Position numbers: made by a program. DNA of 28,791 bases from a virus (taxonomy: Duplodnaviria; Heunggongvirae; Uroviricota; Caudoviricetes), in the IMG/VR virus record IMGVR_UViG_2534682161_000017, positions 1-28,791 of that record; one strand, written 5' to 3'. Positions 12,001-18,000 of this stretch are shown here, in pieces (the stretch's first letter is position 1; every line of letters starts with the position of its first letter).

Positions 12001-15000
12001 TCGTCAGCCAGATATGTAATGACTACTGCCATGTTGACCTCCGATGATTGACTTTGGCGGTGACGCGCCGGGTGCTTATCTTCCGGTTGCCGTCGTGCAG
12101 CTGCACTTCACGTCACCCCAAAGCCAACTACTCTTTGGTTCCCGCATTTCGGCGGGACAATCCCATCAATGTTAAAGAGCCTGCCAATCTGTTCCGTTTG
12201 GCTACCAGCTTCCTGCTGATGGCTTAAAGATAACTTAGGTTATAGGTGTGGTCAATAACCTAATTTATATTTTGTGGTAAATAAGTTATAAGTGATGGAT
12301 AACAAAGGTATTTTATTTTTGTAAATGTTGCTGATTGATTGGTGTTTGAGGGCTTGCGTGCTGGGTGAAGGTGTTACCTTTGGCTTGATGCTTGTCTATG
12401 ATGAGGATGGTTGATTGGATGGTGAACGGCAGGGAAAGAAAAACCCGGCGCTGAGGCCGGGTGTTTTTAGTCCTTTCTGTTGCTTAGCATTTCGTCGATT
12501 TCTAAGTCAATACGATATTGATCTATTGATTTTCTCTCGTTTGGGGTTGGTATTTTATACTGTTCAATTAGATCTGTTGTGTATTTTATTTCATCTAATG
12601 TGATTTTTATATCAGAGAGAATCTCTTTTATATCAATTAGATGCTCTTCTTCTTTTGCGCGATTAGAGCTATGTTCAATCATTTGAGATAGCTTTTTGCT
12701 AATGCTTAGCAAAACAAAAAGAATGATGACCAAAACAACAACAAAAACTATCAGAAATTCCATTATCCCTCCGCACTTCCGTAAGTCTTCTTCTGATTAT
12801 CGGTTACCAACTATGAGACGACCAGAATACTCTGCCAATAATCCTTACGGTTTCATGAAATTCATCTCTATCCATTACTTCATCCGGGTACTCTTCGCGA
12901 TTTATTGATCTGATTATCACCGATGTAGGGGTGGCGATTAATGTTTTTACTCGTAACAAATCAGACTGGCAAATAGCGTAGGTTTTACCATCTCTGATTG
13001 TGGTATCTTGCGTGTTAACACCAACAACATCGCCATCGTGAAGCGTAGGTTCCATGCTTTGCCCTACAACCCTAACTAGCTTGGCTGATCTTTCAGATAC
13101 TCCCATCTTTTTCAGATAGTGCTTTCTGAAAACCAAAGAGAACTCCGATGATTCCTCTAGCTCGCAGCTACCGCTTCCAGCTGAAAGCGAAACGTTAAGA
13201 AGAGGCAACGCAACAAACTCGTCATCGTTTCTTTTAATGTCTTCCCATACCACAGCTTTTAAAGATGACTCACGGACATTGGATGGTTCTTCATGTGCAC
13301 CATCCCTCATTTCACCAATACCAGAACTAAGCCATTCAGGGCGCACTTTTAAAGCATTGGCTAATTCAACCATCTTGCGAGATCCGTTTGTTTTACCGGA
13401 CGACATCTTCTGTATGGCTGGCTGAGATATTCCAACCATGTCTGCAAGCTGTGATTGTGATACCCCAGCTAAGCTCATGGCTGCATTTAGTCTTTCTGCG
13501 AATGTTTTCATACCCACAAATCTATAACTACGGTTATCCAAAGTAAAATAACAAAGGTTATTGCTATTTTTTATAACTTGAGTTATCTTTGGTTATAATC
13601 AATGACCACAAGAGGTATGCTCATGAATTTAGTAATTCAACGAGCCTTGAAAATTGTCGGTAGCCAAAAGCGCCTTGCCGACAAGTGTGGTGTAACGCAG
13701 CCAGCAGTACACAAATGGCTGAAAGGCGGATTGGTCTCTCCAGAGAAAGTTACCGCCATCGTTAACGCCACTGGAGGGCAGATCAAGGCTTACGAAATTC
13801 GCCCCGATTTGCCACACCTGTTTCCAAAACCGAATCAGGCAGCATAAGTAACACCGCTCTTTAACAGTCATGGTCCTCATTCCCGCCGAAATGCGGGAAT
13901 ACAACGCGCATAAGTTGATGCGCATAACTTCTTATTTGTTAAGGAAATACTTACATATGGTTCGTGCAAACAAACGCAACGAGGCTCTAAGAATCGAGAG
14001 TGCGTTGCTTAACAAAATCGCAATGCTTGGAACTGAGAAGACAGCGGAAGCTGTGGGAGTTGATAAGTCGCAGATCAGCAGGTGGAAGAGGGATTGGATT
14101 CCAAAGTTCTCAATGCTGCTTGCTGTTCTTGAATGGGGCGTCGTTGACGACGACATGGCTCGATTGGCACGACAAGTTGCTTCGATTCTCACCAATAAAA
14201 AACGCCCGGCGGCAACCGAGCGTTCTGATCAAATACAAATGGAATTTTAACAACATCCAACGAGGTAATTATATGCGAAACAAAGGCTTTAATCCACCTG
14301 ATACACACAAAGAAGCTAAGCGTTTGCGCTTCCTTCGTTCCATTGATGAAAGAACTCAAATCTCTTTTGTGAAAGTTGCCAGAACTGAGCTTCTGAAGGC
14401 TGAGGCGAGGGCGTTGCTCCCGTCTCTACCAAAAGAGGAGGGATATACGTTCATTCCAAACGCATTTCTGGAAAAGCTTCTCAAAGAAGACATATCCGTA
14501 AGTCAGTTTAACGATGTTCTTAAGGTCTTTCGTCAAGGCAGGTAGTTATGAGCAATACAGCAAAAATCTACGATTTCAGCGCCGCACACGAGCGCAGGAG
14601 CAACAGGATGGAGAACCAGAAAACTGGTTACATTCCGTTGTACCGGAGCATTCTGAAACAGTCATGGGCGAAAGATGTTTATCTTCGCACCCTGTGGGAA
14701 AACCTTCTCCTGAATGCCGCCAGAAAGCCATACAAAGCGAATTTCAAAGGTCATGAATGGCATCTGCAACCCGGTCAACTGGTTGTGACAGCAGCTGATT
14801 TAGGTCTTCAGTTATGCGACAGGCATGGCAAGCCGGCAAGCCGTGATCAGGTTGAGCGGATGCTTCAGGTTTTTGTGAAAGAGGGGATGATCACCATTGA
14901 TGGAGAGAAGCAAAAAGGTCGTGTGATCACCATCACAAATTACCATGAATACGCTCAAAAAATGGACAATTCACCCGCACATGAAGCCGCACAAACAACC

Positions 15001-18000
15001 GCACATGATTCCGCACATGATGAAGCCAGTAATGGTGCGGCTTTCAGCGTACATGCCGCACATGAAAGCGCACATGAAGCCGCACAAACAACCGCACATC
15101 ATGAACAAGAAGGTATTAACAAGAATATAAATAATACCCCCTACCCCCCAATGGGGGAGGCGATGGGCAGGTTAAACCTGAACGTCGCAAGGCAGAACGA
15201 ATCGACTACGAATCCTTCCTGAACGCCTACAACACCGAAGTCGGTGACAGACTTCCACACGCTGTTGCGGTCAACGAGAAACGAAAACGCCGCCTGAAGA
15301 AAATCATCCCGCAGCTGAAAACGCCAAACGTGGACGGTTTCAGAGCGTATGTCAGGGCGTTTGTGCATCAGGCCAAGCCGTTTTACTTCGGAGACAACGA
15401 CACGGGCTGGACAGCTGATTTTGATTACCTGTTGAGGGAAGATTCGTTAACGGGAGTACGGGAAGGGAAGTTTGCAGACAGGGGGATTGCATGAAACAGG
15501 ATATCGAAGCGAGCGTTATCGGTGGCCTGCTGATTGGTGGATTAACACCAACTGCCAGTGACGTTCTGGCAACGCTGGAGCCGGAAGCGTTTTCAATTCC
15601 GCTCTACCGGAAAGCCTTCGAGGTTATCCGCAAGCAGGCGAGAAACAGAAACCTAATCGACGCGCTGATGGTTGCCGAGGCGTGCGGAGAGGAGCATTTC
15701 ACGTCAATCCTGATGACCAGCAAAAACTGCCCGAGTGCCGCAAACCTGAAGGGATATGCCGGAATGGTCGCGGATAACTTTCACCGCCGTCTGGTGCTGG
15801 AAATCATGGATGAAATGCGTGAACCAATTCAGAGCGGAACCATCGACGCATCGAGTCAGGCGATGGATGAACTTGTAAAGCGTCTTTCAGCCATCAGAAA
15901 GCCCCGTGACGAGGTAAAACCTGTACGGTTATGGGAAATCATTACTGACTACACTGACACGCTTGACAGGCGTCTGAGGAACGGAGAAGAGTCCGATACC
16001 CTGAAGACCGGAATCGAAGAACTTGATGCCATCACCGGAGGGATGAACGCAGAAGACCTGGTGATAATCGCTGCTCGTCCTGGTATGGGGAAAACCGAAC
16101 TGGCGCTGAAGATTGCCGAAGGCGTTGCAAGCCGCGTTATTCCTGGTTATGACGTCCGGCGCGGAGTATTGATTTTCTCGATGGAAATGAGCGCATTGCA
16201 GATTGCAGAGCGAAGCATCGCCAACGCCGGGAGGATGTCGGTTAGCGTGCTGCGAAATCCTGCATCGATGGATGACGAAGGCTGGGCGCGTGTTGCTAAC
16301 GGCATGAGTCAGCTTGCAGATTTGGATGTATGGGTAGTCGATGCCTCGCGGTTATCGGTCGAAGAAATACGCTCAATCGCAGAACGGCACAAACAGGAAA
16401 ATCCAAACCTGTCACTCATCATGGCGGATTATCTTGGCCTGATTGAGAAGCCGAAAGCAGATCGCAACGACCTCGCAATTGCTCACATCTCCGGAAGCCT
16501 GAAGGCGATGGCGAAAGACCTGAAAACGCCTGTTATCTCCCTAAGTCAGCTTTCGCGCGATGTTGAGAAGCGACCAAATAAACGCCCGACAAACGCAGAT
16601 TTGCGTGATTCAGGAAGCATTGAACAGGACGCAGACTCAATCATCATGCTCTATCGGGAAGCGGTATATGACGAGAACAGTAGCGCCGCGCCATTTGCTG
16701 AAATCATCGTGACGAAAAACCGTTTTGGCTCGCTTGGTACGGTTTACCAGCGGTTCTGCAACGGACACTTTGTGGCATGTGACCAGGATGAAGCCAGACA
16801 GATTTGCACAGCATCAAATGCACCTGCTGCGCGTGGCAGACGATATGCACAAGGGGCTGACGTATGACCATCTACATCACTGAGCTTGTAACAGGCCTGC
16901 TGGTAATCGCAGGCCTTTTTATTTGGGGGAGAGGGAAGTCATGAAAAAACTAACCTTTGAAATTCGATCTCCGGCACATCAGCAAAACGCTATTCACGCA
17001 GTACAGCAAATCCTTCCAGACCCAACCAAACCAATCGTAGTAACCATTCAGGAACGCAACCGCAGCTTAGACCAAAACAGGAAGCTATGGGCCTGCTTAG
17101 GTGACGTCTCTCGTCAGGTTGAATGGCATGGTCGCTGGCTGGATGCAGAAAGCTGGAAGTGCGTTTTTACCGCAGCATTAAAGCAGCAGGACGTTGTTCC
17201 TAACCTTGCCGGGAATGGCTTTGTGGTAATAGGCCAGTCAACCAGCAGGATGCGTGTAAGCGAATTTGCGGAGCTATTAGAGCTTATACAGGCATTCGGT
17301 ACAGAGCGTGGCGTTAAGTGGTCAGACGAAGCGCGACTGGCTCTCGAATGGAAAGCGCGATGGGGAGACAGGGCGGCATGAGACGACAGCGACGAAGTTT
17401 CACCGACATCATCTGCGAAAACTGCAAATACCTTCCAACGAAACGCTCCAGAAATAAACGCAAGCCAATCCCAAAAGAATCTGACGTAAAAACCTTCAAC
17501 TACACGGCTCACCTGTGGGATATCCGGTGGCTAAGACATCGTGCGAGGAAATGACAATGGATTATTCACAGTTAAGTGATTTTGAAATTAACAGAATGGT
17601 AGGAGACATAATTTTTAAGGGCCTTTGGGCATGTAAGCCGGAAACGTCAGGGAATAATACCAACAAATGGTATTACGGAAACGCTGATACAACTTTTGAG
17701 CCATTAAACCATTTACCTGACTACTGCAATGATCCGAGTGCCTCATGGCCGATTATTGAGAAACACAGGATTTCTATCTTAGACCAGTTAACTGAATGGT
17801 GTGTGGATGCAAAAGGCGTAAGCCCAATATTTGATACCAGACCTCTCCGCGCCGCCATGATTGTCTTTCTCATGATGCAGGACGCCAATAATGCTTAGCC
17901 CATCCCAATCCCTTCAATACCAGAAAGAAAGCGTCGAGCGAGCTTTAACGTGCGCTAACTGCGGTCAGAAGCTGCATGTGCTGGAAGTTCACGTGTGCTC

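Follow-up and report, generated by a model that had tools for sequence, protein, structure and literature searches.

The DNA analyzed here is the IMG/VR virus record IMGVR_UViG_2534682161_000017 (Caudoviricetes), whose full stretch of 28,791 nucleotides is called the window in the following and provides all positions given without further comment. The element of interest is a set of short repeats and an AT-rich tract inside the gene for the replication initiator. The replication origin (ori) of a prophage of lambdoid or P22-like type is very probably located at positions 14975-15157, within the initiator gene of the prophage and at the point where two protein domains meet. An earlier note on this DNA had already read the segment as an origin within the initiator gene, and this reading is now supported by the position of the element, its conservation in diverged homologues, a signature of constraint at the DNA level and covariation with the predicted recognition helix of the initiator.

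Initiator gene, helicase gene and genetic context

The initiator gene is located on the plus strand (14548-15494), belongs to the O/gp18 family and comprises 947 nt (948 nt when intact), as derived from checked reading frames, 98% identity to the O gene of phage CUS-3 and a match to the Pfam family PF04492 (Phage_rep_O). For Pfam scoring, the intact CUS-3 allele (98% nucleotide identity to the window gene) was used, and it matched the family over amino acids (aa) 20-132 with 56.9 bits at a gathering threshold of 28.7 bits. The annotated open reading frame (ORF) 14548-15222 closes with an out-of-frame tail, owing to a deletion of one nucleotide described below. With 98% identity, the intact form is present as the O gene of CUS-3, as the replication genes of JEP4, Gally, HF4s and Kapi1, and in about 50 phages converting their hosts to production of Shiga toxin 2a (Stx2a).

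Residues 1-140 (plus strand, 14548-14967) form the predicted N-terminal winged-helix DNA-binding domain, which contains the Pfam match. In an AlphaFold2 model of this part, the predicted local distance difference test (pLDDT) score was 74-93 over aa 31-130, and the modelled winged helix is composed of helix H2 (aa 82-88), the predicted recognition helix H3 (aa 99-111) and a beta-hairpin wing (aa 115-129). A sequence search of the PDB with the initiator gave no match at E values up to 1. The C-terminal partner-recruiting domain (plus strand, 15142-15494) was read by translation of its frame, which in the window is another one than that of the N-terminal part, and is of the HK97 O/P22 gp18 type. 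At the nucleotide level, this domain shares 94-96% identity with HK97 O and ST104 gene 18, and 67% with P22 gene 18.

The gene immediately downstream (plus strand, 15491-16867) overlaps the stop codon of the initiator gene by 4 nt, is intact and encodes a DnaB-type replicative helicase, the analogue of P22 gp12 and HK97 P (DnaB_C, 1.2e-77; DnaB N-terminal domain, 4e-13; PHROG 19). The pairing of the initiator with such a helicase, which the earlier note had regarded as a departure from the lambda layout, is the known arrangement of P22 gp18/gp12 and of HK97, and the C-terminal domain is of the HK97/P22 type as well. Upstream of the initiator gene, a cI-like repressor gene, cro and a cII gene are found. 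Together with the initiator and the DnaB-type helicase gene downstream, these genes identify the locus by its content as the replication module in the early-right region of a prophage of lambdoid or P22-like type.

Two further features were observed in this region. At the 3′ end of cII, a strong terminator-like hairpin with a 12-bp stem followed by a T run is located on the minus strand (14199-14226), at the position taken by the lambda oop RNA terminator. Between cII and the initiator gene, there is a plus-strand ORF of 90 aa (14273-14545) that is hypothetical in Stx2a phage 981509; in P22 and HK97, this place is taken by the shorter orf48 and gp53, respectively.

Repeat blocks, spacer and AT-rich tract

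The element starts with two blocks of four 12-bp direct (head-to-tail) repeats with the core CCGCACAT on the plus strand. Block 1 (14975-15022) consists of the repeats CCGCACATGAAG, CCGCACAAACAA, CCGCACATGATT and CCGCACATGATG, and block 2 (15056-15103) of CCGCACATGAAA, GCGCACATGAAG, CCGCACAAACAA and CCGCACATCATG. Both blocks were detected by repeat scans and by Tandem Repeats Finder, which reported two arrays of period 12 (14975-15020 and 15056-15099); for block 1, a sequence logo was used in addition. The motif CCGCACA occurs exactly at seven start positions (14975, 14987, 14999, 15011, 15056, 15080 and 15092), while the copy at 15068 reads GCGCACA and has one mismatch. The seven exact cores are located inside 130 nt. 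When the window was simulated 300 times with a first-order Markov model, the largest cluster usually had one core and never more than three. The first repeat corresponds to aa 143 of the initiator and is located past the Pfam match. Translation of the repeats yields P-A-H-E-A-A-Q-T-T-A-H-D-S-A-H-D-E-A in the first block and A-A-H-E-S-A-H-E-A-A-Q-T-T-A-H-H-E-Q in the second.

Between the two blocks there is a spacer of 33 bp (plus strand, 15023-15055; 45 bp start to start) containing the motif AAGCCAGTAATGGyGCGGCTT, and both length and motif are kept in all iteron types, including that of phage L. Part of the spacer, GTGCGGCTT (15035-15043), complements AAGCCGCAC without mismatch and was considered as an inverted iteron. 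This reading was rejected, since close relatives read GCGCGG at this place and the motif remains unchanged where the iterons are CCGATRA, GTCGAA or TGTCCAACGGA. Also, a true repeat unit of 24 bp, by which pairs of repeats would make up four lambda-like sites, was ruled out because arrays of 3 + 3 repeats are common.

The second block runs into the AT-rich tract CATGAACAAGAAGGTATTAACAAGAATATAAATAATA (plus strand, 15100-15136), a candidate DNA-unwinding element on account of its low G+C content, weak duplex, invariance and presence in diverged loci. The G+C content of these 37 bp is 22% compared to 48% for the whole window. The least stable 37-bp duplex of the region 13600-17000 starts at 15101 and belongs to the weakest 0.11% of the whole window. 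The tract is followed by a G+C-rich boundary element of the structure C5-TA-C6-AAT-G5 (plus strand, 15137-15157), which encodes P-L-P-P-N-G-G when intact, as seen in the alignment with CUS-3 and Stx2a phage 981509. A short way upstream of this boundary element, where the AT tract ends (near 15121), the mosaic junction to the C-terminal module is found.

The description in the earlier note agrees with these results in most respects: the eight repeats of about 12 bp in two clusters were recovered at the same coordinates with seven exact cores and one with a single mismatch, the repetitive AH(E/D)(A/S) linker is seen in the translation, and the AT-rich block after the repeats is present as the 37-bp tract. 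For the gap between the two clusters the note had given about 36 bp, a figure close to the 33 bp measured.

With respect to other elements, no sequence matching the DnaA box consensus TTWTNCACA with at most one mismatch was found in 14883-15361, and the number of matches in the whole window (52 vs 54.8 expected) is at chance level; the lack of a DnaA box in or beside the element fits an origin driven by its own initiator. An Rfam scan of 12500-17000 gave no match. A lone exact CCGCACA on the plus strand (14582-14588; 35 nt inside the initiator gene) is shared with CUS-3 and Stx2a phage 981509 and is absent at that position from the Yersinia and Klebsiella homologues.

Conservation of the layout in diverged homologues

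For comparison, one genome per species was scanned for homologues of the N-terminal domain with 65-80% identity. The scan yielded 28 loci from Trabulsiella, Superficieibacter, Enterobacter, Citrobacter, Yersinia, Brenneria, Sodalis, Pantoea, Buttiauxella, Cedecea and others, and two further loci came from Klebsiella phage 2 LV-2017 and Yersinia phage vB_YenM_29.18. Prophages with N-terminal domains in this range of identity numbered 27, with Klebsiella among their hosts, and the two-block repeats, the 33-bp spacer and the AT tract are present in all of them. The layout was identical wherever sufficient sequence was available, namely n repeats of 12 bp, a spacer of 33 bp, again n repeats of 12 bp, and a tract beginning with CATGAACAAGAAGGTAATAACAA. 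Of 31 arrays, 26 could be read by script, 15 of them with n = 3 and 11 with n = 4; the remaining five arrays have degenerate copies and were judged by eye to share this layout. Wherever both blocks are legible, their copy numbers are equal. The absence of the repeats from homologous initiator genes, which the earlier note had named as an observation that would speak against an origin, was not what we found, since the repeats are kept in about 30 diverged prophages and phages of Enterobacterales.

The spacer was 33 bp long and carried the motif AAsCCAGYAATGGCGCGGCTT in every locus regardless of the iteron core, and also in phage L, whose initiator is 22% identical. Its conservation is flat over the codon positions, and the encoded peptide is S-N-G-A-A.

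Constraint at the DNA level

The information content was calculated over 170 repeats and amounted to 1.0-2.0 bits for positions 1-8 (CCGCRCAT) and to at most 0.7 bits for positions 9-12. Repeat positions 1-2 coincide with second and third codon positions. The C at the third codon position is invariant in all 170 repeats, while the first position of the same codon has 0.19 bits and the encoded residue may be P, A, S, T or G. An invariant third position combined with a free amino acid is the reverse of the pattern expected under selection for the peptide. An independent argument that repeats of this kind act as DNA comes from phage L, where the period of 11 bp places consecutive copies in three reading frames.

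Polymorphism was analyzed in 66 distinct alleles of the Escherichia coli type from loci that had been found via the N-terminal domain only. None of the 34 sites of the AT tract was polymorphic. For the iteron cores the share of polymorphic sites was 19%, compared to 47% for the variable iteron positions and 52% for the spacer; third codon positions of the two flanking domains gave 19% and 34%. The cores differ from the variable iteron positions with p = 0.007 and the AT tract from the third codon positions with p = 1e-4. On this pattern, the core of the repeat is held at the DNA level and not at the peptide level.

Iteron type and predicted recognition helix

The type of the iteron core goes along with residues of the N-terminal domain. 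All 12 loci with the core CCGCACA encode D100 and A82, and all 17 loci with CCGCGCA or CCGAGCA encode H100 and S or T at position 82, with no exceptions. In the AlphaFold2 model, residue 100 takes the second position in the predicted recognition helix, and helix 2 starts with residue 82. More distant relatives carry further cores. The N-terminal domain of Salmonella phage S.Inf 5-2 is 53% identical, its helix starts with S-P-Q, and its 3 + 3 repeats have the core C(C/G)CGATRA. For Enterobacter phage ENT1 (46% identity, helix start S-A-K), 3 + 3 repeats with the core (C/A)GTCGAA were found. According to mosaic pairs, the iteron type goes with residues 76-135 and not with residues 21-75; for example, Yen29.18 and locus L015 are 98% identical in the first half and 72% in the second, and their cores are unlike.

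One-base deletion in the window

At 15137-15141, the window has a run of five C residues (C5), while CUS-3 and Stx2a phage 981509 have six (C6) in the alignment. By this, the frame is broken directly after the AT tract, and the predicted product consists of the DNA-binding part and a 27-residue out-of-frame tail. The earlier note had described a frameshift zone beginning at the end of the AT tract. Its location was given correctly, but it is explained by one missing C and is not a programmed feature. Among 111 related IMG/VR contigs, C6 was present in 110 and C5 in one, and the extra base was found in all of the 25 best-matching complete E. coli genomes (402 nt vs 401 nt). Programmed frameshifting at the C run was ruled out, since a single open ORF is present in 110 of the 111 contigs and in these 25 genomes. 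Between the window and the other C5 contig (L039/L117, IMGVR_UViG_2529293142_000029), 44 of 2528 aligned positions differ, from which it follows that C5 has arisen or was mis-called at least twice. C5 is a sporadic homopolymer indel, which is either an inactivating mutation or a sequencing error. In addition, the database proteins P0017, P0039 and P0044 go out of frame in the iteron region or start in shifted frames, and the repeat region seems to be prone to assembly and gene-calling errors or to real indels.

Should the deletion be real, the ori would fire only when an initiator of the same specificity is provided in trans. The deletion is also the basis of the strongest alternative, according to which the element is a decayed remnant in a defective prophage with a frameshifted initiator and its repeats are non-functional in this genome. 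We consider this a serious possibility, albeit somewhat short of an even one. In its favor, C5 instead of C6 truncates the initiator; on the other hand, this concerns the window copy only, in which the DNA of the ori is intact and matches that of 110 IMG/VR contigs with an open gene, and in which the helicase gene is intact, too. Furthermore, a change of a single base in a homopolymer is typical for sequencing errors, and the recurrence of C5 in the 44/2528-divergent contig suggests recurrent slippage or recurrent error.

Interpretation of the element

The reading of 14975-15157 as an ori derives in part from its location in a gene of the O family, which is equivalent to that of the annotated iterons of lambda and of the repeats and AT tract of P22 and HK97. 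An alternative role would be binding of the initiator for purposes of control, i.e., autoregulation, titration or handcuffing, or a roadblock for transcription of the helicase gene, with the replication start site elsewhere in the replication region. Plasmid iterons and plasmid-borne ori-lambda indeed titrate initiator (PMC3349717), the extra single CCGCACA at 14582 is located near the 5′ end of the gene, and a layout of two blocks at a fixed distance would be well compatible with looping or pairing. However, the repeats abut the least stable duplex of the operon, which is itself invariant, their position is equivalent to that of the mapped lambda ori, and within 13600-17000 there is neither a second repeat cluster nor an equally weak duplex in a coding region. 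Control and origin roles are compatible with each other. A purely regulatory element with a start site elsewhere appears quite improbable.

Slightly more improbable still is the notion that the repeats are a mere low-complexity A-H-E/D-A protein linker generated by slippage and the AT tract an Asn/Lys-rich linker code: although the region does encode an inter-domain linker, shows the 3 + 3 or 4 + 4 copies that slippage would yield, follows after the confident part of the AlphaFold model and includes with repeat positions 9-12 and the spacer the most polymorphic parts of the gene, this notion conflicts with the third codon position that is invariant in 170 of 170 repeats while the amino acid varies, with the 11-bp repeats of phage L read in three frames, and with an AT tract in which none of the 34 sites varies, third codon positions included, and in which the rare ATA codon is used, and it leaves the equal copy numbers of the blocks and the fixed 33-bp spacer unexplained.

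Several points weigh against the assignment as an ori. For the 12-bp iteron type, initiator binding, origin activity and the site of unwinding are inferred from sequence, and as the initiator is frameshifted in the window, this copy of the ori may be inactive. A Foldseek search of the model against the PDB returned only winged-helix proteins (CAP, MarR, ArsR), which are generic matches with none below E = 1e-3. The DNA coding for the recognition helix is located about 100 bp from the repeats, and the covariation described above is confounded by this physical linkage, since recombination would transfer both together and linkage alone could give the association; the concerted change of all copies could result from gene conversion within the array. 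Finally, the repeats have neither the dyad symmetry nor the size of about 19 bp known from characterised iterons of the lambda type, so that the stoichiometry and geometry of binding are not transferable from lambda.

Provided that the element is the ori, the following mechanism can be proposed. The N-terminal winged-helix domain would bind the 12-bp repeats CCGCACAT head to tail, with up to four copies per block, and probably as one monomer per repeat in view of the asymmetric sites. The resulting nucleoprotein complex would stress and open the adjoining 37-bp AT-rich tract, probably aided by rightward transcription from the early promoter as in lambda. The C-terminal domain would then bring the phage DnaB-type helicase onto the opened DNA in the manner of P22 gp18/gp12, for which a loader of the lambda P type would not be needed. 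Going beyond this, the bipartite layout might represent a second, mechanistically distinct design of lambdoid origins, in which winged-helix monomers polymerise on each block, the spacer docks a host factor or a second surface of the initiator and thereby pairs the blocks to open the AT tract, and specificity can be re-programmed by single changes in the helix (D100 or H100 with A or G at core position 5; CCGCACAT vs CCGCGCAT). We put this forward as a tentative and rather doubtful extension.

As a whole, the element is of the expected kind in the expected place, and it is a little-described bipartite variant with short repeats that was previously noted for phage L. The concept does not change, because an origin within the initiator gene is textbook lambdoid biology, while the layout of the repeats is uncommon. 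A search of the available literature library revealed no mention of CCGCACAT repeats, and full-text matches to iteron strings were unrelated primers only. A 401-nt probe that covers the ori and extends into the flanking domains gave matches in 708 of 5426 complete genomes; in 276 of these, the match comprised at least 80% of the probe. The replication module whose probable ori is the element described here is common in E. coli prophages and is also present in CUS-3, Kapi1-like phages and many Stx2a-converting phages. For the latter group, replication efficiency is thought to affect the output of Shiga toxin, and the published classification of replication regions of Shiga toxin (Stx) phages describes no origins (PMC8044961); for these types of replication region, an ori is not known to have been reported. 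Also, at least four iteron cores with matching variants of the recognition helix in one fixed scaffold offer a system for initiator-DNA specificity.

Modular build of the initiator and its partner

Two types of back ends were found behind the same front part. In 26 loci with the same module of N-terminal domain, iterons and AT tract, the C-terminal domain is of the lambda O type and a lambda-P-like gene is located downstream. In the window, in CUS-3 and in locus L013, the C-terminal domain is of the HK97 O/P22 gp18 type and is followed by the gene of a DnaB-type helicase. The similarity to HK97, ST104 and P22 starts at nt 574 of the gene, i.e., at 15121 of the window and at the end of the AT tract. 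By these comparisons, the N-terminal domain, the iterons and the AT tract appear to form one exchangeable module for specificity, and the C-terminal domain and the partner gene another. Two back ends on one N-module match the picture that the N-terminus reads the ori and the C-terminus recruits the partner for helicase delivery, a division that has been established for lambda O/P and P22 gp18/gp12 (PMC8022706, PMC2629481).

The helicase of Stx2a phage 981509 (L002, 3445-5838) has 797 aa, is 99% identical to that of the window and carries an insertion of 339 aa directly after the Walker A motif, between GMGK and T, which looks like an intein located in the P-loop. As it is the same protein with an insertion, the association of initiator and helicase holds in this phage as well.

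Among the replication types of Stx phages, Eru2 and Eru3 were considered for the window and both were rejected, as it combines an N-module of the CUS-3 type with a C-terminal domain and helicase of the Eru2/HK97 type. The 822-bp gene of Eru2A (L230, 9832-10653; E. coli O157:H7 TW14359) is of the HK97 O type, as is its product, and contains four dyad-symmetric iterons of the classical form. Eru3A (L231, 1597-2496; Sakai Sp5), with a gene of 900 bp of the phage L type, is a homologue of phage L gp18 and contains a duplicated VPADYQQITT block in its linker. Both Eru2A and Eru3A were termed 'non-lambdoid' replication proteins (PMC8044961).

Comparison with known origins

In the iteron origins of theta plasmids such as pPS10, F and R6K, Rep monomers bind direct repeats of about 17-22 bp, usually accompanied by DnaA boxes. 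The element in the window resembles them in its head-to-tail repeats, the presumed winged-helix initiator and the adjoining AT-rich unwinding element. It differs by its period of 12 bp, by the lack of DnaA boxes and by the location of the repeats within the coding sequence of the initiator; the plasmid-type combination of 17-22-bp iterons with DnaA boxes was not found in the window.

The iterons of lambda have 18-19 bp, are dyad-symmetric and are bound by O dimers. In lambda, P22 and HK97, four dyad-symmetric iterons of about 18-20 bp with spacings of 20, 24 and 23 bp are followed by an AT tract; for ori-lambda, ITN1-4 and the AT-rich region were described by Tsurimoto & Matsubara 1981, as cited in PMC8022706. 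The window shares with lambda the location of the element at a domain boundary inside a gene of the O family (same Pfam family), the succession of iterons and AT tract, and the place in the rightward early operon after cII. Specificity in the N-terminal and recruitment in the C-terminal domain, as predicted for the window, and the module boundary past the AT tract are likewise common to both. In contrast to the four dyad iterons of lambda, the window has eight 12-bp direct repeats without dyad symmetry and a 33-bp spacer, and four dyad sites of about 18-19 bp at 20-24 bp spacing are not present. Moreover, the partner in lambda is the loader P and that in the window a DnaB-type helicase. The likeness to the lambda ori claimed by the earlier note applies to the position and to the order of iterons and AT tract, but does not extend to the form of the repeats, which are 12-bp direct repeats and not dyads of about 19 bp. 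With P22 and HK97, the window has in common the type of C-terminal domain, the DnaB-type partner and the G+C-rich P-L-P-P-N/K-G-G boundary after the AT tract. Their N-terminal domains, however, are unrelated in sequence to that of the window, and their iterons have the lambda form (TTAGCYAAnnCnGCTAA in HK97, TTTACCnnATCGGTAAA in P22).

Lambda, P22 and L each possess distinct iterons inside the O/18 gene, and for gene 18 of phage L, six imprecise 11-bp repeats were reported as the likely origin (Zaworski et al. 2020, PMC8022706). The GenBank entry of phage L (MW013503) contains a putative ori inside gene 18 (rep_origin 31650-31726). Phage L differs from the window in its repeat TGTCCAACGGA with an 11-bp period and six copies, compared to CCGCACAT with 12 bp and eight copies, and in an N-terminal domain that has diverged past easy recognition; its ori is likewise a predicted one. 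Nevertheless, both have two equal blocks (3 + 3 in phage L) of short head-to-tail repeats in the initiator gene next to a DnaB-type helicase, and the initiators are homologous over their full length (BLASTP, 22% identity, E = 3e-10). The motif in the spacer is common (CACCAGTAATGACGCGGCT vs GCCAGTAATGGTGCGGCT; phage L spacer CCAGTAATGACGCGGCT), and the AT tract is almost identical (AACAATAATATAAATAATA). The window thereby displays the phage L-type layout of equal blocks of 11-12-bp repeats, a spacer with CCAGTAATGnCGCGGCT and then AACAAnAATATAAATAATA, and by sequence comparison the putative ori of phage L is its closest described relative.

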